From sequence record PZ386957.1: a DNA stretch of 64,000 nucleotides; one strand, given 5' to 3'. The position numbers and the translations under genes are program-made. Positions 7,108-46,311 of this stretch are shown here, one piece after another. The DNA comes from a phage. The notes beneath the pieces are model-generated. The model searched no databases. It had not been told where the DNA came from and saw only the letters and a list, made by a program, of their open reading frames with translations. Numbering within the stretch: the first letter of the stretch is position 1; each line of letters starts with the position of its first letter.

Positions 7108-7147
7108 TGTTTGATTCTCCTAAGTGGTATCTCGTCTTGATGTGTGT

Positions 7148-7176
7148 ATTATAGGGGATCTCCCGATCCCCGTCAA
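7148..7176 (-). promoter_or_regulatory. early promoter with palindromic spacer (TTGACG-GGGGATCgggaGATCCCC-TATAAT)
   Basis: Same architecture, upstream of ORF 6856..7107. Confidence 0.7.
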
Positions 7177-7190
7177 CAACTTTTTTAAAA

Positions 7191-7472: not shown

Positions 7473-7542
7473 TTTTGATTCTCCAGTTCGTTTCGGTATG
7501 GGTGTATTATGCTATGTTCTTACTTTGGTGTCAACAACTTTT

Positions 7543-7812
7543 TTAGATATTTTCAGAAATAAATTTTAAAACTTGACGTAAATGTTTCTCATCTTTGATA
7601 GTCGCCGGAAGTTCTTCTTTTACTTCCTGTGCAAGATAGATATTGCCGTTCCAAGTGAAAGATCCGTCTTCGTTTACGCGGTAGCTGAACATCCACTCGC
7701 AATCATTTTCGACTTCATAAACACACAGAAGGGTGTAATCATTAAAGTTATTGATTTCAAGGTCGAGGCCGTGACGTTTTGCAAAGTTGGTAGTGGTTTT
7801 AGTCAATGCCAT
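7543..7812 (-). CDS. hypothetical early protein
   Basis: 89 aa ORF preceded by promoter cassette. Confidence 0.45.
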   Translation of the reverse strand: MALTKTTTNFAKRHGLDLEINNFNDYTLLCVYEVENDCEWMFSYRVNEDGSFTWNGNIYLAQEVKEELPATIKDEKHLRQVLKFISENI

Positions 7813-7910
7813 TGTTTGATTCTCCTAAGTAGTATCTCGTTTCGATGGGTGTATTATGATATAGGCGTGATCTGGTGTCAACAACTTTTTTAAAATTTAG
7901 GCAATAAAAA

Positions 7911-7928
7911 GCCGACACTAAGGTCGGC
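7911..7928 (-). terminator. hairpin terminator GCCGACactaaGGTCGGC (repeated copy 1)
   Basis: Identical hairpin and flanks recur at 8411..8428; T-run follows on the - strand. Confidence 0.6.
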
Positions 7929-7933
7929 ACATT

Positions 7934-8251
7934 TTAAAAATTCTTGCTATATATGCAAGCCTCATAATCTAGAGGATGACCGCCAATCCTACCAGGCTTA
8001 ATATTCCAACCGCATCGATATTTGCTGACCATGCTAACCGTTTCGGTTCTTAGAGCATTTCTTTGCAAATCATACCCCCTAAATTCTTGTCTATAAGGAC
8101 AGTCCGCTTTGCAAGTTGGCGGTTCTACGTCATTTAGCGGGTCAGAAGCAGTTGGCTTTATTATCAATTCTTTGTTTGCAATAATCATAAGCACATCCCA
8201 TTGAAGGCAATTTAACATCTTCGCAATAAGTGTTGAATCCGTCAAATACAA
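7934..8251 (-). CDS. hypothetical protein (start uncertain; overlaps next ORF)
   Basis: 105 aa ORF overlapping 8142..8336 in another frame; several Cys residues. Confidence 0.3.
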   Translation of the reverse strand: MYLTDSTLIAKMLNCLQWDVLMIIANKELIIKPTASDPLNDVEPPTCKADCPYRQEFRGYDLQRNALRTETVSMVSKYRCGWNIKPGRIGGHPLDYEACIYSKNF

Positions 8252-8336
8252 TCACTTCGTATTTGACTCCATCGGCGATAGCTTTTACTTTATACCATCC
8301 ATGCTTGTATAAAATCTTCATCTTTATTTCCCTCAA
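8142..8336 (-). CDS. hypothetical small protein
   Basis: 64 aa; SD GAGGGA upstream of ATG and promoter cassette directly upstream. Confidence 0.4.
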   Translation of the reverse strand: MREIKMKILYKHGWYKVKAIADGVKYEVIVFDGFNTYCEDVKLPSMGCAYDYCKQRIDNKANCF

Positions 8337-8354
8337 TCTCGTTTCGATGGGTGT

Positions 8355-8383
8355 ATTATGCTATACACAGGATCTAGTGTCAA
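8355..8383 (-). promoter_or_regulatory. early promoter (TTGACA-17-CATAAT), representative of the non-palindromic cassette
   Basis: Conserved block gtgtattatgctatac...tgtcaacaacttttt recurs at more than 15 sites in the window. Confidence 0.65.
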
Positions 8384-8410
8384 CAACTTTTTAAAATTTT
8401 ATGCAATAAA

Positions 8411-8428
8411 AAGCCGACACTAAGGTCG
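8411..8428 (-). terminator. hairpin terminator GCCGACactaaGGTCGGC (repeated copy 2)
   Basis: Duplicate of 7911..7928 including the flanking aataaaaa tract. Confidence 0.6.
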
Positions 8429-8438
8429 GCTAATAAAA

Positions 8439-8747
8439 TCATTTAGACAAATAATCATTCTGTGCAATCCGGTCAGCATGTTCCGGCGTTACGTCAATCG
8501 CAATCACTTTAACGCGTGCTTTCTTGCGACCTGGGTTTTCTCGTAACCAGTGCTCATGACCGTGAACATTTTTATACTGCGATGCTTCTTCGAAGGTACG
8601 GATCGGACCTGGGTAATCAGCGTAAAGGATCTCTAGATCTTCGGTGATGTAAAAATATACATCGTAATTGCTGTTCTCTAGCTTAAGCAGAGACTTTCGG
8701 AACATTGGGAGATTTTCGCGGGTAAATTCAAAGATATTATCTTTCAT
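8439..8747 (-). CDS. H-x-H-W family small protein (paralog 1 of 6)
   Basis: ...HGHEHWL...VIAIDVTPEHADR; shares motif layout with five neighbouring ORFs. Confidence 0.5.
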   Translation of the reverse strand: MKDNIFEFTRENLPMFRKSLLKLENSNYDVYFYITEDLEILYADYPGPIRTFEEASQYKNVHGHEHWLRENPGRKKARVKVIAIDVTPEHADRIAQNDYLSK

Positions 8748-8797
8748 AGTATTATCCTCAATAGTTGGATGAAAAGGGGGCTTAACGCCCCCATATA

Positions 8798-9085
8798 TTA
8801 AAACAGCCCTTCCTGTACACCGTAGTAGAGTTCGTCACTGATAATTTCATTAATGCGACGGTGTGCATATTCCTGATTTGCGAAGTTGTCAGCAAGTTCT
8901 ACTTTAGTTTCGCCGTCATGAGTCCATTTAGTGATAACTTTACCATCTGCAAATTTGAAGTTGAACTCTTTAGCTACTGCATCGCGTACCAGACGTGCAA
9001 ACTTGTTGTTACGGATTGCATTATCGGTTTCGTGTGCAGCGTGAGCAAATTTGTTAACTTTCAGCGTGATAGTGATGTATGCCAT
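8798..9085 (-). CDS. hypothetical early protein
   Basis: 95 aa ORF with SD, preceded by promoter cassette. Confidence 0.45.
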   Translation of the reverse strand: MAYITITLKVNKFAHAAHETDNAIRNNKFARLVRDAVAKEFNFKFADGKVITKWTHDGETKVELADNFANQEYAHRRINEIISDELYYGVQEGLF

Positions 9086-9166
9086 AATTTGATTCTCCTA
9101 GTTAGAAAGTGTATCTCGTTTCGATGGGTGTATTATGCTATACACCCGATCTTATGTCAACACTTT

Positions 9167-9460
9167 TTATAAAATAATTTTTTGATATTTTTCTATGATG
9201 TTTGTGTAGGTCACGTCAACCGCTAGCACCGTTGCTTCGAATCCACCGTTTAACCAATGGCTATGATCATGGTCGTGAAAGAAACCTAGACCAGTACGAA
9301 GACCTTCTTTATATTCTGCGCGTACATTCAGTTTGTCGTCGATAAACAGATAAAACCATGAATTTTTACTAGGATTGATGATACAACCTTTCAGATTAGG
9401 GAGAATATCACGACTAAGAATAAACTTATCACCTACTTTGAACATAATATTAGTCCTCAC
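9167..9460 (-). CDS. H-x-H-W family small protein (paralog 2)
   Basis: ...HDHDHSHWL...VLAVDVT... Confidence 0.5.
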   Translation of the reverse strand: MRTNIMFKVGDKFILSRDILPNLKGCIINPSKNSWFYLFIDDKLNVRAEYKEGLRTGLGFFHDHDHSHWLNGGFEATVLAVDVTYTNIIEKYQKIIL

Positions 9461-9770
9461 TTATAAGGTCAAACCAATTGTTTTTCGCATAATGCTTAAT
9501 GCGTGCTTGATCTGCTTCCGATGGTGATAGATTCCATGCAACCACTACAACTTCTGACGCATCGTCATCCGTTTCTGATACCCAATGATTGTGATTCATA
9601 CAGTTATTTGCTATCGAGTGAGCAAATGATTTCATCACTGGAGACGTATAATCATAGTAACGGATTTTCAGATTTTCATCAACGTACAAATAGATCGTAT
9701 AAGGTTTATATTCAGTAACCAGTAACAGACAGTTACGCAATTCTGGGAAAATATTTTTAGTTAATTTCAT
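9450..9770 (-). CDS. H-x-H-W family small protein (paralog 3, divergent)
   Basis: ...NHNHWVSE...VVVVAWNLSPSEADQ... Confidence 0.45.
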   Translation of the reverse strand: MKLTKNIFPELRNCLLLVTEYKPYTIYLYVDENLKIRYYDYTSPVMKSFAHSIANNCMNHNHWVSETDDDASEVVVVAWNLSPSEADQARIKHYAKNNWFDLISED

Positions 9771-9984
9771 ATTCTAGTTCTCCGTAATACACGGTAATCC
9801 ATTTTTCTTCATACTTTGTATCTTTCCAACACACAATCCCGTTTACTGTGCAATCTTTGGAATTGACGAATGATTCATATTGTTCTGCATCTTCCATCAT
9901 TGCATGAGCGGTCTTTTCATCGAATATATCGCAGATCGCTTTATATGCTCGATAATCTTTAAATTTGCTCATAATTAAGACCAC
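9757..9984 (-). CDS. hypothetical small protein, tandem duplicate A
   Basis: MSKFKDYRAYKAICDIF...; near-identical N-terminus to the next ORF. Confidence 0.45.
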   Translation of the reverse strand: MVLIMSKFKDYRAYKAICDIFDEKTAHAMMEDAEQYESFVNSKDCTVNGIVCWKDTKYEEKWITVYYGELEYEIN

Positions 9985-10184
9985 TCAAGAGTTTTTGAAA
10001 ACACATCTATCCATTGTTGAGTATATGCGGTTTCTTTCCATGATACAATACCAGTCGAATAATGGTTTTTGTTTCCAGAAAAGGACGGGCATTTTGAGGC
10101 ATCTTCCATCATCTTTTCGGCGAACTCTGGTTCGTATACTCGCAAGATCTGTTGATATGCTTTATAATCTTTAAATTTGCTCAT
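9975..10184 (-). CDS. hypothetical small protein, tandem duplicate B
   Basis: MSKFKDYKAYQQILRVY...MMEDA...; paralog of 9757..9984. Confidence 0.45.
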   Translation of the reverse strand: MSKFKDYKAYQQILRVYEPEFAEKMMEDASKCPSFSGNKNHYSTGIVSWKETAYTQQWIDVFSKTLEWS

Positions 10185-10449
10185 AATTGTTAACTACCTT
10201 ATCAGCTTCTTTTATTGTTTTTACATCAACTGCGATAATCCGTAAAGGTTCGTCGAAGGTCCACCAATGATCGTGAATATCGGCTTGTGATTTATCACCA
10301 AAGGAATCACGAATATCATTTTTACATTTATAGCCAATGTGACCTTCATAGTCAACATAAAGGTAATTATCGAAAATCGGCGTTTTTAAGATCATACCGA
10401 AAAATCTTTCTTTGTGTGTCTTATCCAGTGTTGCAGTAATTCTCATCAT
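10171..10449 (-). CDS. H-x-H-W family small protein (paralog 4)
   Basis: ...DIHDHWW...IIAVDVKTIKEADK... Confidence 0.5.
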   Translation of the reverse strand: MMRITATLDKTHKERFFGMILKTPIFDNYLYVDYEGHIGYKCKNDIRDSFGDKSQADIHDHWWTFDEPLRIIAVDVKTIKEADKVVNNYEQI

Positions 10450-10705
10450 AATATATTCCTCTTAGAAAGGGATGGTCATTTCTTGAGCTTGTACATTCTC
10501 GTTAGGATTAAACTTCATCCAACCGATATTGTCTACCAGCATATGCACATTTTTATCATATCCTACGTGAGTAGTCAACACTAAATGTGTTTTACCTTCA
10601 ACGATGATTTCCATGTACTTCTGAACTTCGATAGCTTTCATTTTGATTCTCCGTTTGTTGTCTTGATGGGAGTATCTTACTACTCCCTTTAATCATTGTC
10701 AACTA

Positions 10706-10873
10706 TTATTTGTTAATTTCCGGTGCGTTGCTCGGATAGTAACCTTCTTTAACACCCAGATATTTCGCAACCATTCCGGTGATCTTCTGTGCTACTACGA
10801 TATCGAATTTCAGGTAGTCTTCACCGTGGTTTGCTACAATGTATGCTTCGCATTCTGCTTTAGTCTGGAACAT
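10706..10873 (-). CDS. hypothetical small protein (start trimmed to internal Met)
   Basis: The ORF-track N-terminus (MHTYQRDIGES) is a translation of the conserved promoter/leader; the likely start is MFQTK after the SD. Confidence 0.35.
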   Translation of the reverse strand: MFQTKAECEAYIVANHGEDYLKFDIVVAQKITGMVAKYLGVKEGYYPSNAPEINK

Positions 10874-10907
10874 TTTTGATTCTCCTATATCTCGTTGGTA
10901 TGTGTGC

Positions 10908-10936
10908 ATTATAGGGGATCACCGATCCCCTGTCAA
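10908..10936 (-). promoter_or_regulatory. early promoter with palindromic spacer (TTGACA-GGGGATCggtGATCCCC-TATAAT)
   Basis: Upstream of ORF 10706..10873. Confidence 0.7.
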
Positions 10937-10943
10937 CAACTTT

Positions 10944-11252
10944 TTATTCTTCATCTTCAACTTTATCTTTATATGCGTATTTCATAAATTTGTCTGCTAC
11001 TTTGTCGGCCTTTTCTGGTTTGACGTCTGACGCCAGGACAATGGCTAGATCGGTTTCGTCGTTCCCACCATACCAGTGATTATGTGTGTCGTTTTCATCA
11101 ATATAGAATTTATCACCTTCGTAAGTTCGAGCAAATACATCTAAATTCCCATCGATGTAAAAGATCCAATCTTCGTAAAGAATAACCGTATTAGCAAGGT
11201 TCTTGTTGCCTTCAACGAAAGGTTCGGTTACAAACAAATTGGTACGTTCCAT
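10944..11252 (-). CDS. H-x-H-W family small protein (paralog 5)
   Basis: ...NDTHNHWYGG...AIVLASDVKPEKADK... Confidence 0.5.
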   Translation of the reverse strand: MERTNLFVTEPFVEGNKNLANTVILYEDWIFYIDGNLDVFARTYEGDKFYIDENDTHNHWYGGNDETDLAIVLASDVKPEKADKVADKFMKYAYKDKVEDEE

Positions 11253-11308
11253 AATATTATCCTCAAATTATGGGAGAGTATTACCCTCCCAATGATTGTT
11301 ATATTACA

Positions 11309-11629
11309 TTACACAAAATGGCGTGTCAATGCTTCTTTTGCTGTTCCGCTAAGACTTTCGATCTCGCCTGGCATAACATCAACTGCCAGAACTTCTACAA
11401 CATCCTCGGACCATAACCAGTGAGTATGACCTTTGTAGAACTTGATAACCAGACTACCTTCCTCGTCCCATTTAACGCTATCGCTAGCCCACCACACATC
11501 ACCGTCGATAAAGTTGATGTAAAGTACGCTACGCCACATAGAATTAGTTACTTTTAGGACCGCGCCTTTCATCTCTTCCACGGTGTGGTCTTCCATTTTG
11601 AAGACCTCGCCTACCTGAACTTTTGCCAT
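11309..11629 (-). CDS. H-x-H-W family small protein (paralog 6)
   Basis: ...KGHTHWLWSED...VLAVDVMPGE... Confidence 0.5.
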   Translation of the reverse strand: MAKVQVGEVFKMEDHTVEEMKGAVLKVTNSMWRSVLYINFIDGDVWWASDSVKWDEEGSLVIKFYKGHTHWLWSEDVVEVLAVDVMPGEIESLSGTAKEALTRHFV

Positions 11630-11646
11630 TTAGTCACCTCTCTTTA

Positions 11647-11826
11647 TTACATAACAATCACGCCAGCCGTTGAAAGTTGATGTTTCAGTTGAGCATTTTC
11701 TGCTACCGTCAAATCAATGATTTCTTGTGACGCTGCAATCATATAACCATTGGTGATATTGTTTTGCATCAGTTCAATGGTTTCTTCGTTGTAGCGGATT
11801 TTAGCGATGATTTCGTTGAAGTTCAT
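11647..11826 (-). CDS. hypothetical small protein (start trimmed to internal Met)
   Basis: The ORF-track N-terminus (HTYRNELGES) is promoter-leader read-through; the likely start is MNFNEI after SD AGGAGAA. Confidence 0.35.
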   Translation of the reverse strand: MNFNEIIAKIRYNEETIELMQNNITNGYMIAASQEIIDLTVAENAQLKHQLSTAGVIVM

Positions 11827-11860
11827 AATTGATTCTCCTAGTTCGTTTCGGTATGTGTGT

Positions 11861-11889
11861 AGTATAGGGGATCGGTGATCCCCTGTCAA
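11861..11889 (-). promoter_or_regulatory. early promoter with palindromic spacer (TTGACA-GGGGATCaccGATCCCC-TATACT)
   Basis: Upstream of ORF 11647..11826. Confidence 0.7.
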
Positions 11890-11902
11890 CAACTTTTTTG
11901 AA

Positions 11903-12379
11903 TTATTTTTCTTGATGCTCGCGCTCATACTTTTCGAAATAAAATTCTACTGGCTGGTCGTGGATTGACAGTAAGCCAAAGCGTTTAGCCGCGCGTAATC
12001 CCATGTTACGTTGAATGTACTTCTGGAAGTTCTCGCGTATACACTTACGCCAGTATTCTAAGCCCATACAGCTTTTATAAAGATTGCATTGCACACACGA
12101 CGGATTCATGTTATCAAGTATATCATGTTCCGGTTTATGCATTCCTACAACCTTATACTTCCACGATCCATCATCATTACGGGAAATTCGTCCATTTTCA
12201 TCATAGACTACTTTTGAGCGTCGCAATACTGGTTTGATGTGGTCTGCGTGCCAGCGATCCCCTAGTTCCTCGCCACAATAGGCACAACGTCCACCGTATT
12301 TCATTTTCAGGATCTGGCGTTGCTCTTTCTTTGACAATTTTTTAGGTTTAGGGGCTTTCGCCCCTTCATTATCACACAT
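11903..12379 (-). CDS. HNH endonuclease-like zinc-binding protein
   Basis: CAYCGEEL...HADHIKP...CVQCNLYK, a classical HNH beta-beta-alpha-metal motif; overlaps the ligase stop. Confidence 0.6.
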   Translation of the reverse strand: MCDNEGAKAPKPKKLSKKEQRQILKMKYGGRCAYCGEELGDRWHADHIKPVLRRSKVVYDENGRISRNDDGSWKYKVVGMHKPEHDILDNMNPSCVQCNLYKSCMGLEYWRKCIRENFQKYIQRNMGLRAAKRFGLLSIHDQPVEFYFEKYEREHQEK

Positions 12380-13874
12380 CGAATACCTCTTTTACTGTAT
12401 TTGCAGTTGTCTTATCGTAGCGAATACGTTTGATGATTGGGAGAAATAACGAGAACTCCGGTTCATCTTCTTTACGTGACTTGCTGCGAATATACCCGTT
12501 ACATGTCATCTCAATGACTTTTCCAATCAGGTTATGACGATCAGACCATAGCATTTCTCGGTCTAGTTCATTTCGACGGTCAAACGGAATCACACGTTCA
12601 ATACCATCATCACCTTTTTCGGTTGTAGTGTCGGTTAATCCCGATCCGGTATTAGTCATCATTCGTCCACACGCACTACGGACAGTAAAACCGCCTACCT
12701 TATTAGGATCTTTACTATGCGGATATACATCAACAATTTCCGCATCGAAGTCAATCACTTCTTTAAATTTGACCTGATCTTTACTGCGACGATCTTCAAA
12801 TACGCCATGTAAATTTTTAAGGATAATGCCTTCTAAGCCCATGTTTACATAGCGATGATATACTTCGCGAGCTTCATCGATATTGTTAACTACAGTATTT
12901 TCGATTATCTGAACACGAGGATCGTTGAGTTCGTCAACAATCTGTTTTAGTTCTTCGAATCGATCTTTATATTGCTTCGTTGCTTTCTCATTTCCGTAGT
13001 ACACATCACGGTCGATAACATCCCAGACAGTGTAAACAATACACTGGGCTTCTTCTTTTGGAATAGTTCCTTTCAGTGATTTGTTGAGGATACCATTTCC
13101 GGTCTGACGATCTGCAACAACGGATTCTTTAACCGCTTCCGCTACTGGCGTTAATGGCATTTCCTCTTCTTCAAATATCCATGACAGAGTACCATCATAA
13201 ACGCTCTCAACGAAGTTCTGTGCTGGTGTTTGCGAAAGGGTAGGCATATATACCAATTCGCCATCTAGAACAATTCCACGGCCTCGTAGACGCTCTAAAA
13301 CAGCAAACAAATCATCAAGCCCCTGATAGGTATTGCCTGAACGGGTATAGATTGCTAATGTTTCCCCGTCAATGTCAGCCATCCCACGAGCGCCATCACT
13401 TTTAAGTTGTGCATACGCCGGATATTTGATATTAGCAATAGTCTTATCAGAATATGACGATGCAAGGTGACATGGTTGCTGAGGAATCAGTTTCTTCCAT
13501 ACCTTGTTTGCGGTAGTAGCGGAACAACCGCACTCCAGATCACGATTCAGGACCATCATTGCAACTTTAGCATCATCTTCTGACAAGCAAGTCAGAGTAT
13601 CGGTAACTAGCTGTAATGCAGCATTGCCAGTTACTTGACGCGTGGCAAGTTTATTTTTAAAGACCTGTAATGCACCGGATAAAGACAATACAGATGAATA
13701 ACGAGAAGGTTTATCGTATTTCTTTACGCCAAACGTAACCTGTTTGCAATATGCCAGATAAAAGCATTCTTTCAGCGTTTCATTGCTTGCAGATTCTTTC
13801 AGAATCTTTTCTTTCAGCGATGTTTTGTCCGTTGCCGAAAGCTGATTAATGATATTAAGAATTGACATTTTCAC
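12372..13874 (-). CDS. 30: ATP-dependent DNA ligase gp30
   Basis: 500 aa (T4 gp30 487 aa); adenylation motif KSDGARG (KxDG). Confidence 0.85.
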   Translation of the reverse strand: MKMSILNIINQLSATDKTSLKEKILKESASNETLKECFYLAYCKQVTFGVKKYDKPSRYSSVLSLSGALQVFKNKLATRQVTGNAALQLVTDTLTCLSEDDAKVAMMVLNRDLECGCSATTANKVWKKLIPQQPCHLASSYSDKTIANIKYPAYAQLKSDGARGMADIDGETLAIYTRSGNTYQGLDDLFAVLERLRGRGIVLDGELVYMPTLSQTPAQNFVESVYDGTLSWIFEEEEMPLTPVAEAVKESVVADRQTGNGILNKSLKGTIPKEEAQCIVYTVWDVIDRDVYYGNEKATKQYKDRFEELKQIVDELNDPRVQIIENTVVNNIDEAREVYHRYVNMGLEGIILKNLHGVFEDRRSKDQVKFKEVIDFDAEIVDVYPHSKDPNKVGGFTVRSACGRMMTNTGSGLTDTTTEKGDDGIERVIPFDRRNELDREMLWSDRHNLIGKVIEMTCNGYIRSKSRKEDEPEFSLFLPIIKRIRYDKTTANTVKEVFDV

Positions 13875-33754: not shown

Positions 33755-34702
33755 TTAGAATTCCCCTATTTTCTGCAACATTTTAACTAACGCATTTGTT
33801 ACAAAATAGTTATAAATTTTACCGCGTGGTGCTGGTTTAGATTTTTCCCATGACTCCAGAATCTGATTCTGGATATTGTCTGGGATCTCGTCAAAGTCAA
33901 TCAACTGACGGTTTTCATCAAATCGGCGTGCTTCTTCCTCTGTCATCAAAGACTTAGGATCTTCGGCATCGAAAATTTGCTCTAACCATTTGGTCGCAAC
34001 TGGTTTAGCTCGTTCACCTTCCAATCGAGAGATAATAAAATCACTACGGCACTTGACAGAAGCTACACCGTCTTTTGCGTCACCCTTAACACATTTTACC
34101 ATAAGGTCTTTGTACGGGCTACCATATTTGCATTTCTTCCATGCTTTTTGTACTGGTGCCCACTGCTTCACATTTTTGTATTTGTGTAACTGAGTGTAGT
34201 CACCGTCGCCGGAGTTAATAAGAACTTGACGTCCTTCAATAGAAAACTTTTTAGTTAATACAGCGATTATATCATCAGCTTCAACTTTGTCAACCTTAAT
34301 AACGTGATAAGGCATGTTTTCTTTAAACTCTTCGGTGATCTTATTGATCGCAGCAAAGATCATATCCCAATCACGCGGATCTGCGTCTCGCTTTTCCTTA
34401 CGGTTGCGCTTGTAATAAGGTGCAATATCGCGTCGCCAGTAACCTTTGCTCGAATCAAATGCAAGTACCGTAATCGGGTATTGCTCTTTGAATTTTGTCA
34501 TATTATAACGCATGGTGTCAAGGATAAGATGACGGATCATGCCTTCACTAATAGGATCTTCCGGTTTAAAGGTATGCGAGATAGTAGCAATCATAAGCTG
34601 TGACATATCAATCAAATGCACACCTTCCGGCAGTTTATCTTCTGGATCATCAAAAAAATCATTAAGTGTAGCGGTAGTTTTTGTAAACGGGTTATACGTC
34701 AT
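33755..34702 (-). CDS. rnh: RNase H / 5'-3' flap exonuclease
   Basis: 315 aa (T4 RNase H 305 aa); FEN-like acidic clusters; located upstream of the 34 region. Confidence 0.75.
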   Translation of the reverse strand: MTYNPFTKTTATLNDFFDDPEDKLPEGVHLIDMSQLMIATISHTFKPEDPISEGMIRHLILDTMRYNMTKFKEQYPITVLAFDSSKGYWRRDIAPYYKRNRKEKRDADPRDWDMIFAAINKITEEFKENMPYHVIKVDKVEADDIIAVLTKKFSIEGRQVLINSGDGDYTQLHKYKNVKQWAPVQKAWKKCKYGSPYKDLMVKCVKGDAKDGVASVKCRSDFIISRLEGERAKPVATKWLEQIFDAEDPKSLMTEEEARRFDENRQLIDFDEIPDNIQNQILESWEKSKPAPRGKIYNYFVTNALVKMLQKIGEF

Positions 34703-34704
34703 AA

Positions 34705-34890
34705 TTAAGTTCTCTCCACTCTCACAACAACATATTCGCCAAACGAGCTAGATACTTCACGGTCATATCCGTACTTCTCCATAACTCGCAGAATTGCATT
34801 GTTTAATTCAGCACGAAAATAATTGTAATCCTTATCGGGGATTCTGTCAACTATCCATTTTGCACCATCTGACAAATCAACTTTAACCAT
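34705..34890 (-). CDS. hypothetical small protein
   Basis: 61 aa ORF. Confidence 0.3.
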   Translation of the reverse strand: MVKVDLSDGAKWIVDRIPDKDYNYFRAELNNAILRVMEKYGYDREVSSSFGEYVVVRVERT

Positions 34891-34925
34891 ATTATCACCC
34901 TCTTATTATTTGTCAAGTCTCATTT

Positions 34926-34933
34926 TATAAATA
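34926..34933 (+). promoter_or_regulatory. T4-type late promoter (TATAAATA) for gene 34
   Basis: tttTATAAATAat about 30 nt upstream of the gp34 start. Confidence 0.6.
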
Positions 34934-34961
34934 ATCTCATACTATAACAGGAGATCATATA

Positions 34962-37900
34962 ATGGCAGATTTACTAAGTCAACATTTTAAGGCCACATTT
35001 GGCTTTGATGCTGGTAATGAAAAGGTCGTCAATGTAGCATTGGCTGATAAGAACACTCTCACCGATGCCGTTAACGTTGAATTTTTCAATTACCATAACG
35101 GTATTACGCAGTATGACACAACTCGCGGTTATGATCAATACGGTACTGCAATTTATCAAAACCGTCCTTACTATGCAAAGGAAAACATCGCGAAGCCAGC
35201 GGGAGAATTTGATCCGACTAAATGGCAAGCACTGCGTACTGATCCGCGTTGGGATTACATTGCAGCGACTTCCGGCGATACTCCCCTAAAGTCTGGTGAT
35301 TATATCGCTGCGGATTGCCAATTTGCAAACTTAACATTCTCCATGCCTACTAAGCCAGCCGAAGGCGATACTATAACAGTAAAAGATATCGGTGGCAAGT
35401 GCGGTGTAAACGAATTGTCGTTCCTCGCATCTGGTCATGAGTTCTATCATAATGGCACAGTATACAATAGAAAATGGTATTGCACAACTCCTTATTCGAT
35501 GATGTATTTCATCTTTGCTCGTGGACGTTGGCATGTATACCAGACTGGAACAGAGCCGCGCGGGGTATATGCACAGCCAGCTATTGATCCAATCCAGATG
35601 CAAAACGGAGATCAGGTATTCCGTCGCAGTTCATTAGGTAATATTGTATTGAAATTACCTAAGTTTGCAAATAACGGTGATATCATCAATACCACGGACC
35701 TGGATGGATTGACCGCAACAAATCACGTTACCATCAAGACACACGAAGGAGCGCCGGACCATTCTATTGGTGCAGTCGGTGTAAAAGAGATTGTAGGCAA
35801 ACGTAGTGGTCACGGTGTATTCATCTTTGATATTACTGAAAACTTATGGCGTGTTTGGGATGGTGATCAGTCTGTACGCTTAACGCCTATCGCATCGGAT
35901 ACCCGCTTGCTGCCTAACACGTATGTCGCTGTATTCGGTGATCGCAATGTCACTTTAACATTGCCTACTAACGTAGAGATCGGGGATCGTATTCAGGTCG
36001 CATTACAATACATGCACGGTACACAAACTTGCAAGATTGTAACGTCTGGGGCAGATACCAAAATTTTAATGCAGAAAAACATGCTGCAATTCCCTAAACG
36101 CAGCGAATATCCGTTTAATGGATCTGATACGTGGAAGGAAGTAACAGAGTTATCTTTCAGTGCTGCAACTGATTATGTTCCGTATCTGGAGTTCTCTTAT
36201 TCAGAAGGTGATGACGGTAAAAAACACTGGTTAGTAGCACATGCTCATCCTATCGTAGAACGGGTAGATCCGACTCGTAAAGATCGTGTGGGTGTAATTG
36301 CGCTGGCTACTCAAGACGAAACCAATAAAAACCATGAGCAGAATCCGAGCGACGAAGTAGCTGTTACCCCTCGTGTGTTGGCTAATAAAACCGCAACCGA
36401 AACACGACGCGGTATTGCAAGAATTGCTACGCAAGCAGAAACGCATCAAAATACTGGTTCTAACTTCCTTGATGATGTTATCGTTACACCTAAAAAATTA
36501 AATGATTGTGTTGCTACTGAATCACGTCGTGGTGTGCTGGAAATTGCAACGCAAGCAGAGACTAACGAAGGTTTAGACGATACCCGCGCTATTACTCCTA
36601 AGAAATTAGAAGAACGTCGCGCGAGTGAAACGTTGGCAGGGATTGCGGAAATTATTACGGCTGGCGGTAACGCTGCGGCAGTTCGTGGTCAAGCTGGTTC
36701 CGGTATCTACGATATCAATGACCATGCTAAAATCGTTACTCCCCATAACCTGAATGAAGTTAAAGCGACAGAAACATCTCGCGGTGTAGGTTATCTGGCA
36801 ACTGACGCAGAAGTACAGGGAGCGACCGAAGCAACACCGCAAGATGCATTGTTAATCACTACCCGTACTTTGACTAAGCGTATTGCAACAGAAACGCGCA
36901 CGGGGATCGCGGAAATCGCTACTCAAGCAGAAACCAATCAGGGGCAGCTTGATACCCATATTGTTACGCCGTTAAAACTCAATAACCGTCGTGCAACCGA
37001 AACGCTACATGGTCTAGCAGAAATCGCAACTCAGGTTGAATTTGACACAGGTCGAGATGATGCTCGCATTTCTACCCCATTGAAGATTAAAACCTTCTTT
37101 GAGAATGCACAGCGTTTGAAAGTAGATCCTACTCAGGGGCTTAACCTTACTGGCGATTTGTGGCAAGGTATTACTATTCGCGGTCTGGATGCTGACGAAG
37201 CAACTAAAGGCGTTGCTAAAGTCGCTACTGTCCAGTTAACCGACGCTGGTACTGATGATACCACAATCATTACGCCGAAGAAATTACAAGGTAAAAAAGC
37301 CACTGAAGTTAAAGAAGGTATTATTCGTGTTGGTACTCAAGCCGAAACCGTAGCAGGTATACTGGATGATGTGGCAGTATCGCCGAAGAACTTCAAATAT
37401 GTTGTTCAGGTTGATGACACATGGAAAGCAACGGAAGCGCGTCGCGGTTTTCTGAAAGTATCTACAAAAGAAAACTGTTTTGTTGGTAATGACCTTGCTG
37501 GTTCCACTCAAGCAATTGATCAATATCTGCATGATGGAATCGCAGTTACCCCGCGTGGTTTAAACTATGCACTGGCTAACTTCTTACCTAAAATGGCAAC
37601 CGCTCAGAATAGTTTGAAATTAGGCAACGTAGAAGCCGCTAAATGGGCGCGTAGAGACGTTGATCAGACTATCGAGGCCAATTACACGTTTAAGAAAAAT
37701 ATCAACGTGGAGGGTGATTTAGAGTGCTTAAAATCAGGTACGTTTGAAACACTGTATGTAACCAAAAATTCAACTGACGAGGCGAGCACCGGAAATCTGG
37801 TATTAGGTATCCGTGGTCAAAATGGTCATACCGGAATTGCATTGCATGGCACAACCGGAGATATTGAGAACTCATGGGCTATGCTCGTAGGCGGTACTGG

Positions 37901-38693
37901 TACTGGACAAATTACCAGCCCAACTGCAATTGCTTTCGGTGCGATTAGTGATATAGGGGCAATTGACCATTATGCATTCGCGGTAGAACGTAATGGTGAT
38001 GCGGCAGCATATCAGGACTTTATCGCAGGTCGTAACCTGTATGCTAAACAAGGTGGATTGTACATCGTCGATCACGAAAACGCAGCCATGACTTACTCAG
38101 GCGGTATTCTACATATTGGTCACGGTAAAGTCAATATTAAAGCTGGTTATCAGGAATTGACTACCGAAATCGCCGGACAAAAATATCAAATTGTCCATAA
38201 AGGAAACGCCGACGATGTTCTTGATCGTCAATTCGTCAAGAATGCTGGTGATACTATGGTCGGTAAACTGATTATGGACAATGCCGCAATTGTTTCTGTT
38301 AAGCATGAAGCTAGCGCAGCGACCGCCCCAGCCGTAGGTAATATCGGTTTCTGGAATATGCGCGTTACTACTCCATCAATCCGTGATTCTTATCCTGAAA
38401 AGAAAAACGGTACTTTGATGCAATGGGGTACTGATGCCGATGGTCTTACTCAGATGTGGTCGCCTGATGGTACACACAAACATTATATCCGTTCCGGTAC
38501 TGGTGGTCAATGGTCTGCGTGGGGTGAAATCTACACCAAACAGAACAAGCCTACCGCGCAGGAAATCGGTGCAATGGTTGCTGATGGCGGTTTAACCAAC
38601 TCTATGACCGTTCGAGATTGGGTTAAAATTGGTAACGTGAAAATCGTTGCAAATAACCTTACCCGGACAGTTGATTTTATTTGGGAAGATTAA
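34962..38693 (+). CDS. 34: long tail fibre proximal subunit gp34
   Basis: 1243 aa (T4 gp34 1289 aa); multiple ~35-aa ATETRRGIAEIATQAET...TPKKL repeats; late promoter upstream. Confidence 0.85.
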   Translation: MADLLSQHFKATFGFDAGNEKVVNVALADKNTLTDAVNVEFFNYHNGITQYDTTRGYDQYGTAIYQNRPYYAKENIAKPAGEFDPTKWQALRTDPRWDYIAATSGDTPLKSGDYIAADCQFANLTFSMPTKPAEGDTITVKDIGGKCGVNELSFLASGHEFYHNGTVYNRKWYCTTPYSMMYFIFARGRWHVYQTGTEPRGVYAQPAIDPIQMQNGDQVFRRSSLGNIVLKLPKFANNGDIINTTDLDGLTATNHVTIKTHEGAPDHSIGAVGVKEIVGKRSGHGVFIFDITENLWRVWDGDQSVRLTPIASDTRLLPNTYVAVFGDRNVTLTLPTNVEIGDRIQVALQYMHGTQTCKIVTSGADTKILMQKNMLQFPKRSEYPFNGSDTWKEVTELSFSAATDYVPYLEFSYSEGDDGKKHWLVAHAHPIVERVDPTRKDRVGVIALATQDETNKNHEQNPSDEVAVTPRVLANKTATETRRGIARIATQAETHQNTGSNFLDDVIVTPKKLNDCVATESRRGVLEIATQAETNEGLDDTRAITPKKLEERRASETLAGIAEIITAGGNAAAVRGQAGSGIYDINDHAKIVTPHNLNEVKATETSRGVGYLATDAEVQGATEATPQDALLITTRTLTKRIATETRTGIAEIATQAETNQGQLDTHIVTPLKLNNRRATETLHGLAEIATQVEFDTGRDDARISTPLKIKTFFENAQRLKVDPTQGLNLTGDLWQGITIRGLDADEATKGVAKVATVQLTDAGTDDTTIITPKKLQGKKATEVKEGIIRVGTQAETVAGILDDVAVSPKNFKYVVQVDDTWKATEARRGFLKVSTKENCFVGNDLAGSTQAIDQYLHDGIAVTPRGLNYALANFLPKMATAQNSLKLGNVEAAKWARRDVDQTIEANYTFKKNINVEGDLECLKSGTFETLYVTKNSTDEASTGNLVLGIRGQNGHTGIALHGTTGDIENSWAMLVGGTGTGQITSPTAIAFGAISDIGAIDHYAFAVERNGDAAAYQDFIAGRNLYAKQGGLYIVDHENAAMTYSGGILHIGHGKVNIKAGYQELTTEIAGQKYQIVHKGNADDVLDRQFVKNAGDTMVGKLIMDNAAIVSVKHEASAATAPAVGNIGFWNMRVTTPSIRDSYPEKKNGTLMQWGTDADGLTQMWSPDGTHKHYIRSGTGGQWSAWGEIYTKQNKPTAQEIGAMVADGGLTNSMTVRDWVKIGNVKIVANNLTRTVDFIWED
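36350..37480 (+). repeat. tandem in-frame coding repeats within gp34
   Basis: At least nine copies of an A-T-E-T-x-x-G-[IV]-A-E-I-A-T-Q-A-E-T...T-P-K-K-L unit. Confidence 0.6.
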
Positions 38694-38698
38694 TTTAA

Positions 38699-38716
38699 GG
38701 GGGCTTTGCCCCCTTT
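38699..38716 (+). terminator. hairpin after gene 34
   Basis: GGGGGCtttGCCCCC followed by T-containing tract. Confidence 0.5.
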
Positions 38717-38725
38717 GGAGTTATT

Positions 38726-39865
38726 ATGTCAGAAGAAATCGAATTGCGCAATACAGGAATTAAATTTGCACATTTTGATCAAGATTCCGTAACATTTAAC
38801 AGCATATCAGAAAACAACTCTGTGATGTATAAGCTGGAAGTGCGCGGATCTAATAGTGATTCGACTAAACCAGCAAGGATCAGATTCAATGGCGTAGAGA
38901 TTACTGGCACTGGCTATCAAGTCGGTTTGAATTTTAAAGTGTTGACTCCAACCGGACAACTCCACGAAGAAAAGATATTCTATGGACGTGGTGCAGCCTT
39001 AGCAATGCGCGATTATCTCAATACCCTGAAAGGGGATTATATCATCGCAATGGCCTCGCATGGTAAATTGACACCTGATCCAGTAAATGATGAAATATTC
39101 AATCGATTAGGATCAGTATCATATCCAAATCATATTCTATTACAACAAATGCCGCAAGTTAGTTATGCAGCAATCTATTCTACTAAAATGGGTAAAGTCG
39201 TTTGTGAAGGTATGCAAGCATCACACGGAGAAGGGCAAGATTCATCTATACAAATAGAGAAAGTCTATGATACAATAGATGATTTGGCAATTACCGGAAT
39301 CCCTCAACGATTCTTAGATTATCCAGTGGAATATGTTAGCGAAGACGCAGAACACTTTGAATTAGTACAATGGCCTAAAAACGAAATATCCGCGCCTATG
39401 ACAGACTTTAATATCAAGGCAGGAGATAAGCTATCTATTTCATTTGAGCTATTCAGAGATGATGCAGCGGCTTCTGCTGGCGTGACCGCAAGGTTCTTCC
39501 ACAATTATTTTCTGGAAGGAACTTATAAAACTGGTGTACGTTACAATGCAACAAAACGCGATCAGTGGGAAAGGTTTGATGCGGTGTATACTGTACCGGA
39601 AGGAGTTGATAGTGTAGTAACTGGCTGTATCCGGTATCCAACTAACTCCAGTGAAGGGATTGTTAAGGTGCGCAATATTCTGATTACCCAGATTAGCGGA
39701 GTAGTCAAAACCGATGGTCCTACTTCCTTTGGTGTTAACGGTGTTAGAACTACAAGCATTCAAGATAACGGTGACTTCACTAATCCGGTTATGAGTCTGC
39801 TTAAATTACCGCGAGACAACAAACATCTTACTTCCAATAACTTTAAAGAATTTGATGTTGATTAA
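38726..39865 (+). CDS. 35: long tail fibre hinge connector gp35
   Basis: 379 aa (T4 gp35 372 aa); positional. Confidence 0.65.
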   Translation: MSEEIELRNTGIKFAHFDQDSVTFNSISENNSVMYKLEVRGSNSDSTKPARIRFNGVEITGTGYQVGLNFKVLTPTGQLHEEKIFYGRGAALAMRDYLNTLKGDYIIAMASHGKLTPDPVNDEIFNRLGSVSYPNHILLQQMPQVSYAAIYSTKMGKVVCEGMQASHGEGQDSSIQIEKVYDTIDDLAITGIPQRFLDYPVEYVSEDAEHFELVQWPKNEISAPMTDFNIKAGDKLSISFELFRDDAAASAGVTARFFHNYFLEGTYKTGVRYNATKRDQWERFDAVYTVPEGVDSVVTGCIRYPTNSSEGIVKVRNILITQISGVVKTDGPTSFGVNGVRTTSIQDNGDFTNPVMSLLKLPRDNKHLTSNNFKEFDVD

Positions 39866-39870
39866 CCAAA

Positions 39871-39897
39871 AAGCCGATCCTTGTGGTCGGCTTAATT
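39871..39897 (+). terminator. rho-independent terminator after gene 35
   Basis: GCCGATCcttgtGGTCGGC hairpin + ttaattttt. Confidence 0.7.
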
Positions 39898-40030
39898 TTT
39901 ATGGGAATGGTTAAAACTTAACCAAAACGGTGATCTTTATTATCCTGAAAGATACACGTTTGATTAATAATTAATCATCAAACAAATAGTGCCTCCGGCA
40001 CTCGCGAAGCGATAATTTTTTACTTAATTT

Positions 40031-40038
40031 TATAAATA
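40031..40038 (+). promoter_or_regulatory. T4-type late promoter (TATAAATA) for gene 36
   Basis: tttTATAAATActcag about 33 nt upstream of the ATG. Confidence 0.6.
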
Positions 40039-40070
40039 CTCAGTATTATAACTAGATTTGAGGAAATCTT

Positions 40071-41561
40071 ATGGCAGATTTGAAACATGGATCTACAGTT
40101 GGTGGATCACCGATTTGGACTCAAGGTAACTTGACAATCCAACCAGCGGGAGATCAACTATTCTATAAAGGTCATAAAATATACACTGCTTCCGACCGAC
40201 CTTCTGCTGGTGATGTTGATTCGGTTAGTGCTACCGAAGGTGGTACATTTCAAAGACCAGTTCATTTCAATGAAGGATTGAGTGTAGGTAGCGCATCGGC
40301 AGGTGAGACAAAAAAGAACGGATTATTCCCCGGTCAAAGCGATGCTGCTAATTTTGACGGTGTAAGTTGGGGTTTGCATTCATGGAAGTCAATTGGCTTT
40401 GTAAATGCCCGTGATGGCGTTATAATGGCATATATTGACACAACCACAGGTGATTTTAATACTAAAGGTTCCATTAATGGTGTAAACGTCAAAGACTCAG
40501 GTCAACGCGTCTATAGTCCGGTTAATAAGCCGACAAATAATGATTTGGATTTAGTTTCTCGTCGCGGTGATACTCTCACCGGAACTTATAATCTAAACAC
40601 TGTTACCGTTAAATTGTCTGTTGATTCTAAATTGGTGGCGAGAGATCGTGATTTAATTAACTTTGATGCAAGCAAGATTTATTATGGGAATACCGTAGAT
40701 TCTTTGGTATTCCGTAGTAAAGCAGAGCCATTAATTTATGTTAATGGTAAAGAAGGTAAATTCTATCACACCAATAATAAACCGACTAAGGCCGACGTTG
40801 GTCTAGGTAATGTCACCAATGATGCACAGGTTAAGCGTGCCGGTGATATCATGGAAGGTAATTTGCAAGCGCCTAGAATGTTGGCTACAAATGATCCGGC
40901 TGGTCCTAATGAACTAGTTAGATTAAGCTATTTTGAGAAAAAATCAATGGTAGCCAATCCAACGATCATCGGTACTGCTGATTGGAATACACTTATTGAC
41001 CGTGGTATCTATCGTGTAGAGAATGCTGGTTCTGGTACTAATATACCCTCAGATAGTTATTACTATGGGGTGTTAATGATCTATCGACCAGAAGATGCAA
41101 CGGGAACTCGTCGAATTGTTCAAGTTTATTACCCAGAGTCGATTAATCATCCGGTTTGTTGGCGTTCTTGTTCTGGTACTTCGTGGACTGCATGGAACTA
41201 TGTAGATCACCGTAAATTGGCTGATGCTCGCTATGTTAATGTTACTGGCGATAAGATGTCTGGTGCTTTATCTGTTCCTGCTGGGAATGGTGTTCGTACT
41301 ATAAGCACTAACTATAACGGTGATAACTATTACGTTGGTCTTAATAGCTTAGACGGCGTTGCTATGATCGAGCGGGTGAGCGACCTTAAGGCAAAAGAGC
41401 GTTTAGGTATTACTCATGATTCTAAGATTGTATTTGTTCGTTCTAAGAACAACACACAAACACAAGAAACATTAGAATTATATCATGAAGGCCATAAACC
41501 TACTCCTGCCGAAGTTGGCGCTGTTCCGCTTAACGCAGTAATTGATTTCGGTACTTTCTAA
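40071..41561 (+). CDS. 36: long tail fibre distal connector gp36 (enlarged)
   Basis: 496 aa; MADL N-terminus shared with 34 and 37; positional. Confidence 0.55.
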   Translation: MADLKHGSTVGGSPIWTQGNLTIQPAGDQLFYKGHKIYTASDRPSAGDVDSVSATEGGTFQRPVHFNEGLSVGSASAGETKKNGLFPGQSDAANFDGVSWGLHSWKSIGFVNARDGVIMAYIDTTTGDFNTKGSINGVNVKDSGQRVYSPVNKPTNNDLDLVSRRGDTLTGTYNLNTVTVKLSVDSKLVARDRDLINFDASKIYYGNTVDSLVFRSKAEPLIYVNGKEGKFYHTNNKPTKADVGLGNVTNDAQVKRAGDIMEGNLQAPRMLATNDPAGPNELVRLSYFEKKSMVANPTIIGTADWNTLIDRGIYRVENAGSGTNIPSDSYYYGVLMIYRPEDATGTRRIVQVYYPESINHPVCWRSCSGTSWTAWNYVDHRKLADARYVNVTGDKMSGALSVPAGNGVRTISTNYNGDNYYVGLNSLDGVAMIERVSDLKAKERLGITHDSKIVFVRSKNNTQTQETLELYHEGHKPTPAEVGAVPLNAVIDFGTF

Positions 41562-41563
41562 TT

Positions 41564-41590
41564 TTAGCGGGGATTCTTTCCCCGCTTTTT
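41564..41590 (+). terminator. rho-independent terminator after gene 36
   Basis: GCGGGGAttctttCCCCGC + ttttt. Confidence 0.65.
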
Positions 41591-41632
41591 CTAAATAATA
41601 CTATTCTAATAACTGTTTAAGGATTTTATAAA

Positions 41633-44389: not shown

Positions 44390-44431
44390 GGAAAACTCCC
44401 AGGGAAGGGAAACTACTAAGGAGAAACGGCT

Positions 44432-44671
44432 ATGGTCTATAATATCGTCATTGGTGCCTTGTCTAGTTTCGGAATGAAACTATTATCAAAGTTAATTAGT
44501 GAAAAGATGCTCACTAAAATTTTCTTCTATTGCGCTCGTCGTCTTGCGGCATATACCAATACGCCAATTGATGATCGTTTCGTGGAAGAACTTTATAAGG
44601 AGTTTAATAAAGATCAGTCAGAAGATAGCAACGAGCAGAATAAAACGGGTGACAGTCAAGTACCTAAATAA
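44432..44671 (+). CDS. hypothetical small protein
   Basis: 79 aa ORF between 37 and t. Confidence 0.35.
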   Translation: MVYNIVIGALSSFGMKLLSKLISEKMLTKIFFYCARRLAAYTNTPIDDRFVEELYKEFNKDQSEDSNEQNKTGDSQVPK

Positions 44672-44705
44672 TGGTACACTGTCATAGTTATTTTTAGGGC
44701 ATTAT

Positions 44706-45362
44706 ATGCAAGTTTCTGAAAAAGAGAAAGACTTTGCTATCTCAAATGTCCTGCGCGCTATTTTCACAACTAAAAGCACGGAGTTGCTCGTACTTCGTGT
44801 TTTTGCTGCCGTTGTGTTGTCTATATTAGCATTTGTCGTTTATAGCAAAAACGAGTTGTTTGCGCTTTATAAAGAAACTCGTTATGAGACTTATGCTCAC
44901 GTTCTCCAGGTAGAAAAAGACCGCAATTTTGATAATGCAGCACAGGAGCAGTTACAGATAGTTCATGTGTCGGCAGATGCCGATTTTTCTGCTGTTTTTA
45001 GCTTTCGTCCAAAAAACCTAAACTATTTCGTTGATTTGGTGGCATATGAAGGAAAGCTACCGCATACAATCGATGAAAAGAATTTAGGCGGATTCCCTAT
45101 CAATAAAACGAGTGAAGAATATCGTAGGCATCTTTTAGGTAAATCCTATTTTACCGATAAAGATTTCCAGTATATTCCGTCGAGGGAGAAAAAATTAGAG
45201 AATATCGATATAGGATTCATGTATTCTTGTCCTATATTCAATCTCGATAATGTCTATTCTGGTAGTATCGCCATTGCATGGAAGAATAAACCAGATATTG
45301 ACATTGAGAATTTAGATACTCTTTGTAGTCAATCTGCCAGAATCCTCGGAAGGATTAGATAA
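44706..45362 (+). CDS. t: holin T
   Basis: 218 aa, same length as T4 T; single N-proximal TMD; strings recalled from T4 T (EQLQIVHVS, FSAVFSFRPKNLNYFVDL, C-terminal ARILGR). Confidence 0.85.
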   Translation: MQVSEKEKDFAISNVLRAIFTTKSTELLVLRVFAAVVLSILAFVVYSKNELFALYKETRYETYAHVLQVEKDRNFDNAAQEQLQIVHVSADADFSAVFSFRPKNLNYFVDLVAYEGKLPHTIDEKNLGGFPINKTSEEYRRHLLGKSYFTDKDFQYIPSREKKLENIDIGFMYSCPIFNLDNVYSGSIAIAWKNKPDIDIENLDTLCSQSARILGRIR

Positions 45363-45368
45363 ATTAAA

Positions 45369-45395
45369 GGGGGAGCCTTTCGGCCTCCCCTTCTT
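45369..45395 (+). terminator. bidirectional rho-independent terminator after t
   Basis: GGGGGAGCCtttcGGCCTCCCC hairpin flanked by A-run and T-run. Confidence 0.7.
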
Positions 45396-45397
45396 TT

Positions 45398-45646
45398 TTA
45401 GTGACGCATAGAAGCGCCTGAATCGCATTTTGACGCAGTATGATGAAAACATGTGGCGTACCAGTCATCGGCTTGTTTGTCCTCGTCAGAGAACGCATAA
45501 TTTCGTTGTATGCCGTTTTCTACTTTGACCAGTGCAATAGCTGTTTCTGGAAGATCAATCAATCGGACAAAATCACCATCTTCCCACTCTACACGAGCAA
45601 TATCATAACCCATCTCAAAATATGCAATCGCTTGTTCTAATTTCAT
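45398..45646 (-). CDS. hypothetical small protein
   Basis: 82 aa ORF. Confidence 0.35.
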   Translation of the reverse strand: MKLEQAIAYFEMGYDIARVEWEDGDFVRLIDLPETAIALVKVENGIQRNYAFSDEDKQADDWYATCFHHTASKCDSGASMRH

Positions 45647-45975
45647 TCTGGAAACTTCCCGTAAATGTTCTCTGCCAACATACGCGCATCGCTAATGATA
45701 TCTTTCATGCTATGACCGTAGTGTTCAGCCATTGAGTTGATACAATCAACAAATAAATTATAACGGCGACGGTTTAAGATTTCTTCTCTGTTATAGTTTT
45801 CATACTTGACGGTCGAGTGTGCTTTCTCGATTGCCTTAATCGCTATATTGACTTCATTAATAATGGTTTTAGCATTATATGCGCCACGACGGATCAGGAT
45901 ATTTGTCAATTCTCTTGCAATATCTTGCAATTCTTCATATTCATGTTCAAACATAATCAACCTCTCAAAATACAA
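45643..45975 (-). CDS. hypothetical protein
   Basis: 110 aa ORF. Confidence 0.4.
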   Translation of the reverse strand: MYFERLIMFEHEYEELQDIARELTNILIRRGAYNAKTIINEVNIAIKAIEKAHSTVKYENYNREEILNRRRYNLFVDCINSMAEHYGHSMKDIISDARMLAENIYGKFPE

Positions 45976-45978
45976 TCC

Positions 45979-46311
45979 TTACAGATGAAAACCTGTTACG
46001 ATCACCGCATCGATCATACCGCTAGGGATAAACGGTTCGCCCTCTTTTATTTCAACTTTGAATTGATGCCATTTTGCTAATGCTTCTTCCGGTACACCCA
46101 GCGATTCGGCGTCTGCTTTAGTTTCATCCATAATCCAACTAGGCTGCATGAGGGCATAGTTTACATAGTCCATTTCTGGGGTCATGTCATCAATGTTAAT
46201 ATATTTGCAGTTGACGCGTTTCAGAATTTCAAATTCTTTATCGTCAACCTGTACCATATACAATTCAGTAGTTTCTGGAATCAGTTCCCATACAATCAGT
46301 ACATTTTTCAT
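45979..46311 (-). CDS. hypothetical protein
   Basis: 110 aa ORF. Confidence 0.4.
   Translation of the reverse strand: MKNVLIVWELIPETTELYMVQVDDKEFEILKRVNCKYINIDDMTPEMDYVNYALMQPSWIMDETKADAESLGVPEEALAKWHQFKVEIKEGEPFIPSGMIDAVIVTGFHL

Follow-up and report, generated by a model that had tools for sequence, protein, structure and literature searches.

Between alt, which encodes an ADP-ribosyltransferase, and gene 30, which encodes the DNA ligase, a 64,000-nt stretch of phage DNA (sequence record PZ386957.1; the whole stretch is referred to below as the window) carries six open reading frames (ORFs) for small proteins, here called copies A to F in order of position (Table 1). An initial annotation, made from the sequence alone, had described them as an array of paralogues sharing a His-x-His-Trp (HxHW) element followed by a V/I-D-V segment. 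We confirmed the six ORFs, all on the minus strand, and the motifs HEHWL, HSHWL, HNHWV, HDHWW, HNHWY, and HTHWLW are present as listed there. Copy B had been given a GTG start at 9460, but the ATG at 9445 is the likelier start (yielding a 92-aa protein), since orthologues begin with MFKVGD and a TGAGGA site stands before the ATG. A GAGGA-type ribosome-binding site precedes each of the six ORFs. Positions 8000-12400 of the window matched 59 phage records, all of them Krischvirus (RB49-like T4-type coliphages and Shigella phages), with nucleotide identities of 95.5% to UPWr_E1 and ~92% to RB49, in which each counterpart of the six ORFs is annotated as a "hypothetical protein." Krischvirus phages (RB49, phi1, GEC-3S, ECD7, and many therapy candidates) are widely used, and about half of their genes are unannotated. 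Only alt.1 (62 aa) lies between alt and gene 30 in T4, indicating that the ~10-kb interval is an expansion of the Krischvirus lineage. Neither a hidden Markov model (HMM) match nor an H.HW motif was found at T4 positions 118000-134000, and no syntenic T4 homologue of the six genes was present there.

HMMs built with one copy left out recovered the omitted copy in every case, with E values of 3e-6 to 5e-14 among the 604 six-frame ORFs of the window (next best ORF, >0.1). This result excludes chance likeness and bears out the earlier description of a diversified paralogue family in the hyperplastic alt-30 interval. Pairwise BLASTP gave a strong match only between copies A and C (E of 5e-10), the other pairs being weak. 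The H.HW pattern occurs exactly six times in the 51,209 residues of six-frame ORFs in the window, always inside these six genes, and no seventh copy was found either in the window or among the 2089 ORFs of the complete genome of the closest relative. The six proteins have isoelectric points (pI) of 4.4-6.9 and no apparent hydrophobic segments. We conclude that the six genes are one old, diverged, lineage-restricted paralogue family of small proteins.

Across 105 full-length family sequences, the second His and the Trp of HxHW are invariant, and the first His is present in 102, its place being taken by Ser or Asp in three natural E-type sequences. The V/I-D-V segment was found in five of the six copies and is missing from copy C; in the wider family its Asp is D in 87 sequences, N in 8, and G in 8. 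Within the "EAD" segment that often follows, the Ala is nearly invariant and the Asp position holds D, K, or N. The remaining conserved positions belong to the hydrophobic core (Y-I/V of strand 3, F50, and V-L-A of strand 5). Extended HxHxH and HxHxHxH runs occur in copies A and B, and the other four copies have only two His residues. The suggestion of a conserved metal-binding dyad is thereby weakened, as the first His is replaceable and the downstream Asp varies, and we treat the element as a putative site only.

AlphaFold2 models of copy A (predicted local distance difference test [pLDDT] score of 79.7, predicted template modeling score [pTM] of 0.77) and copy B (pLDDT of 86.1, pTM of 0.81) show the same order of elements: a strand, a helix, three strands, a short helix at HxHW, a strand, and a C-terminal helix. 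In this predicted scaffold the fifth strand carries V-L-A-x-D/N-V, and the C-terminal helix often begins with E-A-D. The six top-ranked matches in a Foldseek search of BFVD were models of Krischvirus paralogues (template modeling scores of 0.56-0.80). Both modeled copies share one predicted architecture.

Searches of Pfam, NCBIfam, PADLOC, and PDB sequences with single proteins and with profiles returned nothing significant, with no PDB sequence relative even at an E value of 10, and no enzyme family or PDB fold match was detected. The initial annotation had not recognized the family either, and the curated libraries searched (Pfam, NCBIfam, and PADLOC) hold no match to it. The six proteins fall into phrog_9345, 17255, 15972, 15965, and 16486 (E of 1e-48 to 1e-70), all labeled "unknown function"; PHROGs thus places in five separate families six proteins that our profiles and tree unite in one. 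Weak matches to PROCT, 1yb3, and the [Fe]-hydrogenase small subunit did not recur across members and were discarded. The HIT superfamily and the cupins resemble the HxHW proteins in having a short His-x-His within an alpha/beta or beta protein of ~100 aa, and copies A and B even have HxHxH. However, the intervening residues of the HIT motif are hydrophobic and those of the HxHW family are polar, and we found neither the H-phi-H-phi-H-phi-phi motif, nor a HIT Pfam match above threshold, nor the HIT fold. Cupin membership is likewise not supported, as Cupin_2 was matched by one of 24 members at an E value of 0.2 and the models consist of five strands plus helices rather than a jelly-roll barrel. 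A KOW/SH3-like barrel, the metagenome annotation label of the orthologue P0064, was matched neither as a KOW domain in Pfam nor as an SH3-like fold. Among known anti-phage-defense and anti-defense families, there was no PADLOC match and no significant fold match to a characterized inhibitor. The Tas1 immunity protein (6ox6_B), AcrIIA7 (8kbi_A), and Tad2 (9eib_A) resemble the HxHW proteins weakly in structure, at 7-12% identity and without a common motif, and they rank among equally weak fold matches to papain-like and Cif domains, mS34, and kinases.

A BFVD match to a protein of the Pseudoalteromonas phage pYD6-A had a probability of 0.98 but was rejected as homology, as the protein lacks HxHW and profile-profile comparison (hhalign) gave a probability of 1.5%. 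About nine early ORFs of 83-94 aa stand in tandem in this N4-like phage (L022, 1932-6174), forming a separate array without HxHW; it may have arisen by convergence as a "small early protein array," or it may be only very remotely related.

Among cultured phages, the family is confined to Krischvirus, its distant members being metagenomic. Only close Krischvirus relatives came back from a word-indexed search of 5.8 billion proteins, and an exhaustive profile search of 1.84 billion representatives yielded 20 clusters at E values of ≤0.001, one of them spurious (P0100, a 2878-aa Gram-positive LPXTG repeat surface protein). Scans of IMG/VR with three distant members found nothing. In the T4-like contig L002, the ligase shares 72.7% identity with Krischvirus ligases and <60% with all others; the ligase-alt interval there holds two E-type copies and no other family member, showing that a copy can exist without the other subfamilies. 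The 2.1-kb contig L004 encodes five family domains in four adjacent genes. In a neighbor-joining tree, metagenomic sequences fell within five of the subfamilies (A, C, D, E, and F; bootstrap values of 57-100); the F clade includes P0086 and P0101 (100% bootstrap), and the E clade includes P0093, P0097, P0098, and P0099. These orthologues keep 34-49% identity and intact motifs. Since orthologues of A, C, D, E, and F exist in uncultured sister lineages with ligases ~72% identical, the duplications are old, predate the split of the lineages, and have been followed by separate retention of the copies. The leader ORFs of F and D and an ORF beginning MSKFKDY next to C also adjoin family members in L004 and L005. 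One of the L004 genes, P0087 (823-1434; metagenome SRR8048117), encodes a 203-aa protein in which a short Lys/Asp-rich linker connects two family domains; it is known from this single contig and may be an assembly or frameshift artifact. We withdrew a reading of P0087 as a "Rosetta-stone" fusion of B and E, because its halves are sisters in the tree, which indicates internal duplication rather than fusion of two subfamilies.

The initial annotation had also stated that most copies possess their own early promoter cassette. Repeated early promoter cassettes are present (7111-7185, 7498-7551, 7834-7928, 8318-8430, 9113-9207, 10871-10945, and 11824-11898), but the first gene after each is a different small ORF, and none of the six copies has its own promoter/stem-loop cassette immediately before it. 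The HxHW genes are instead later cistrons: F follows its leader ORF, and D, C, and B belong to a tightly packed unit begun by another (Table 1), in which the copy B start lies 4 nt past the copy C stop. Copies A and E are each preceded by a GC hairpin, and a lone weak promoter-like match (10/12) lies within the 3' end of F, upstream of E. GEC-3S, in which promoters and terminators were annotated by its authors, shows the same downstream-cistron arrangement. The repeated cassettes of the window are of the PeSL type, described from the hyperplastic regions of RB49 and phi1 (Arbiol et al. 2010, PMC2839356). The early transcription claimed for the family is borne out as a sigma-70-type early promoter context, and as downstream cistrons of such units the proteins are probably made in the first minutes of infection.

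Two features of these regulatory sequences are recorded here in their own right. Composite terminator-plus-promoter cassettes of ~95 nt with 60-91% identity (7834-7928, 8336-8430, and 9113-9207) consist of the hairpin AGCCGACCTTAGTGTCGGC followed by TTGACA...CATAAT, and they match the PeSL elements described for RB49/phi1. A similar 5' region, with a GC-rich hairpin and then TTGAGGATAATAyTATG, marks copies A and E and no others (8748-8792 and 11253-11290, minus strand). It may have been left over from the duplication, or it may serve both genes as an attenuator or a stability element.

Table 1. Features of the alt-30 interval in the window, with ratios of nonsynonymous to synonymous substitution rates (dN/dS; Nei-Gojobori, orthologue comparisons)
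Feature	Position	Strand	Remarks	dN/dS
Terminator-like hairpin directly 3' of copy A	8412..8431	-	Part of repeated terminator-plus-promoter cassette	
Copy A, HEHW, 102 aa	8439..8747	-	RB49p197; flanked by two terminator-like hairpins	0.19
Terminator-like hairpin directly 5' of copy A	8776..8792	-	Terminator annotated at same place in GEC-3S	
Early promoter cassette	9132..9160	-	Drives ORF 8798-9085; copy A comes after hairpin 8776-8792	
Copy B, HSHW, 92 aa	9167..9445	-	RB49p199; ATG at 9445; most conserved copy	0.09
Copy C, HNHW, 106 aa	9450..9770	-	RB49p200; WNL replaces VDV; sister of copy A	0.19
Copy D, HDHW, 92 aa	10171..10449	-	RB49p203; second cistron after 59-aa ORF 10462-10641	0.15
59-aa leader ORF before D	10462..10641	-	Homologue (55% identity) precedes family genes in L004	
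Early promoter-like site with internal stem-loop	10674..10702	-	Drives ORF 10462-10641, D, two MSKFKDY ORFs, C, B (tightly packed unit)	
Copy E, HNHW, 102 aa, pI 4.4	10944..11252	-	RB49p206; most variable copy (dS 0.71)	0.17
GC stem-loop just upstream of copy E	~11272-11290	-		
Copy F, HTHW, 106 aa	11309..11629	-	RB49p208; second cistron of unit from promoter 11861-11889	0.14
59-aa leader ORF before F	11647..11826	-	Adjacency kept in metagenomic contig L004 (64% identity)	
Early promoter cassette, PeSL type	11861..11898	-	TTGACA-17-TATACT plus GGGGATC..GATCCCC stem-loop; drives ORF 11647-11826, then F	
HNH endonuclease ORF	11903-12379	-	Abuts ligase gene	0.042
Gene 30 (DNA ligase)	12372-13874			0.027
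Neighboring small ORFs				0.02-0.33

Thirteen Krischvirus intervals were aligned; the full set of six copies and their order are preserved in 12, and FL04 keeps only E and F. A concatenated F-E-D-C-B-A query detected the family in 59 of 59 records and covered at least 80% of its length in one colinear place in 50 of them; in several of the remainder, such as Phi1, the array is merely split over two places. The array is reduced in FL04 and Cognac (F and E only) and in PTE-Eco09 and phiS, which match only D-A in this search, and it also looks reduced in G5211 and KMB43. Copy A is truncated in kvi and JSE. The existence of isolates lacking A-D, apparently lacking E-F, or with a truncated A indicates that the genes are dispensable on laboratory hosts. 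In FL04, the deletion that removed A-D brought the homologues of ORF205 and ORF190 together, and the composite cassettes probably mediate the FL04 and Cognac deletions. In the same phage, the E copy (L015, 4758-5276) is annotated as a 172-aa protein fused to an upstream small ORF, a homologue of RB49p207.

The initial annotation had placed the family under diversifying selection. We observed dN/dS values of 0.09-0.19 in all six copies, which is purifying selection: it is 3-7 times more relaxed than that on the DNA ligase but is not gene-wide diversifying. Copy D occurs in two allele classes with ~56% identity (the second in GEC-3S and Phi1), and the dS of copy E is far above that of its neighbors. 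The D allele classes and the deep divergence of E point to allele exchange by recombination, as is typical of exchanged accessory genes.

The best explanation of these data is that the six genes are ancient paralogues, each encoding a small (92-106 aa), soluble, neutral-to-acidic, cytoplasmic alpha/beta protein, with a presumed role as a binder in the cytoplasm. We tentatively favor a model, somewhat short of an even bet, in which the proteins would act as dispensable accessory factors, each binding a target stoichiometrically. All copies would contact their ligand, be it a metal ion, a host protein, or a small molecule resembling a nucleotide, through the conserved His/Trp element, and subfamily-specific surfaces would give each copy its own specificity. 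Several observations weigh against such a shared contact site or its early use: the confidence of the A and B models is lowest at the HxHW stretch (pLDDT of 62-84), the invariant Trp and His could be mere determinants of the fold, and the early timing, while probable, is read from promoter sequences. A host-takeover or anti-defense role, as proposed in the initial annotation, is plausible from the location, timing, and dispensability of the genes. The proteins might alternatively be small His-dependent enzymes, possibly dimeric, serving as metal-dependent or general-acid/base hydrolases of a nucleotide, a signaling molecule, or a modified substrate that differs between paralogues. Catalytic or metal sites are commonly marked by a His-x-His with an aromatic residue after it, a combination that is nearly invariant here; copies A and B have the longer His runs, and the genes lie beside alt, ligase, and dCMP deaminase, which belong to nucleotide metabolism and ADP-ribosylation. 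However, conservation of polar residues is limited to two or three positions out of ~95, the first His gives way to Ser or Asp in natural E-type sequences, the candidate third ligand (the Asp of VDV) may be D, N, or G, and no Pfam, NCBIfam, or PDB relative was found beyond the single marginal Cupin_2 match, so we regard catalysis as unlikely. Slightly less likely in our estimation is the more far-reaching proposal that the fold is previously unseen and that the HxHW site binds or cleaves small molecules, such as the nucleotide-derived second messengers used in bacterial immunity; the six paralogues would be sponges or hydrolases that differ in ligand specificity and would constitute a new class of anti-defense proteins restricted to Krischvirus-like phages.

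Retention of at least five copies, mostly all six, in one colinear block in at least 50 of the 59 Krischvirus records would also be expected if the paralogues were subunits of one hetero-oligomer that work only together. The partly overlapping operon of D, C, and B and the metagenomic relative with five domains in 2.1 kb, including the two-domain P0087, could be read in the same way. We nonetheless consider an obligate complex improbable: there are viable isolates with only E and F or, apparently, only A-D, L002 has two E-type copies alone, the halves of P0087 are each other's closest relatives and reflect an internal duplication, and the copies are spread over at least three transcription units. 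A functionless origin, as ORFan cargo moved by recombination of promoter cassettes or as chance ORFs, could draw on the fact that ORFans in this type of region are known to be inserted, deleted, and replaced by PeSL recombination (PMC2839356) and on the loss of copies in some isolates. Against it stand the purifying selection on all six copies, the ribosome-binding site at every one, the persistence of subfamily orthologues with intact motifs in sister lineages at the identities given above, and models that are confident and concordant. The selection and conservation data essentially exclude a junk-ORF reading.

The nearest known relatives in kind are the PeSL-associated ORFans of RB49 and phi1 (Arbiol et al. 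2010, PMC2839356; Comeau et al. 2014, PMC4122927), which come from the same phage group and the same type of region. Like them, the HxHW genes are small, non-essential, and without an assigned function, are associated with sigma-70-like early promoters with stem-loops, and show presence/absence and allele replacement between close relatives. In contrast to the PeSL ORFans, they are downstream cistrons rather than single-gene cassettes bracketed by PeSLs, and they belong to a single paralogue family, with a stable gene order in most genomes. Neither of these two papers mentions the six genes or any paralogy, the five-genome comparison of Nolan et al. (2006) does not mention the six genes as a family, and we found no description of the family in the literature on RB49/Krischvirus paralogues and no paper in which the PHROG identifiers or locus tags appear. 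The finding of an undescribed, uncharacterized phage accessory paralogue family with a clean motif is solid but ordinary-looking.

Six "hypothetical proteins" per genome are now united in a single family that has a clear signature and whose predicted fold is without a PDB match. Natural deletion variants (FL04 and Cognac without A-D; PTE-Eco09 and phiS apparently without E-F) exist for host-range comparison. If the family does counter host defenses or remodel the host, it would account for some of the hyperplastic alt-30 region and provide a compact new scaffold; if it has no measurable phenotype, it is one more conserved phage ORFan family. Its interest is moderate and would rise sharply only with a ligand, a target, or a defense phenotype.

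Other features of the window were noted in passing. Between copies D and C lies a tandem pair of minus-strand MSKFKDY paralogues (71 and 69 aa; 9757-9972 and 9975-10184), whose 5' ends are 73% identical over 90 nt. Their homologues adjoin family members in the metagenomic contigs L005 and L002, and in six of 13 compared Krischvirus intervals one copy is swapped for an allele of ~62% identity. The HNH endonuclease ORF is 87.5% identical to its counterpart in L002 (6600-7112), compared with 71.6% for the adjacent ligase gene, a difference suggesting that the HNH gene moved horizontally in recent times, in line with the behavior of homing endonucleases. The GC skew changes sign around positions 34000-46000 of the window, being positive at 36-46 kb and negative elsewhere, consistent with an opposite-strand gene block corresponding to the late structural genes of T4-type phages.

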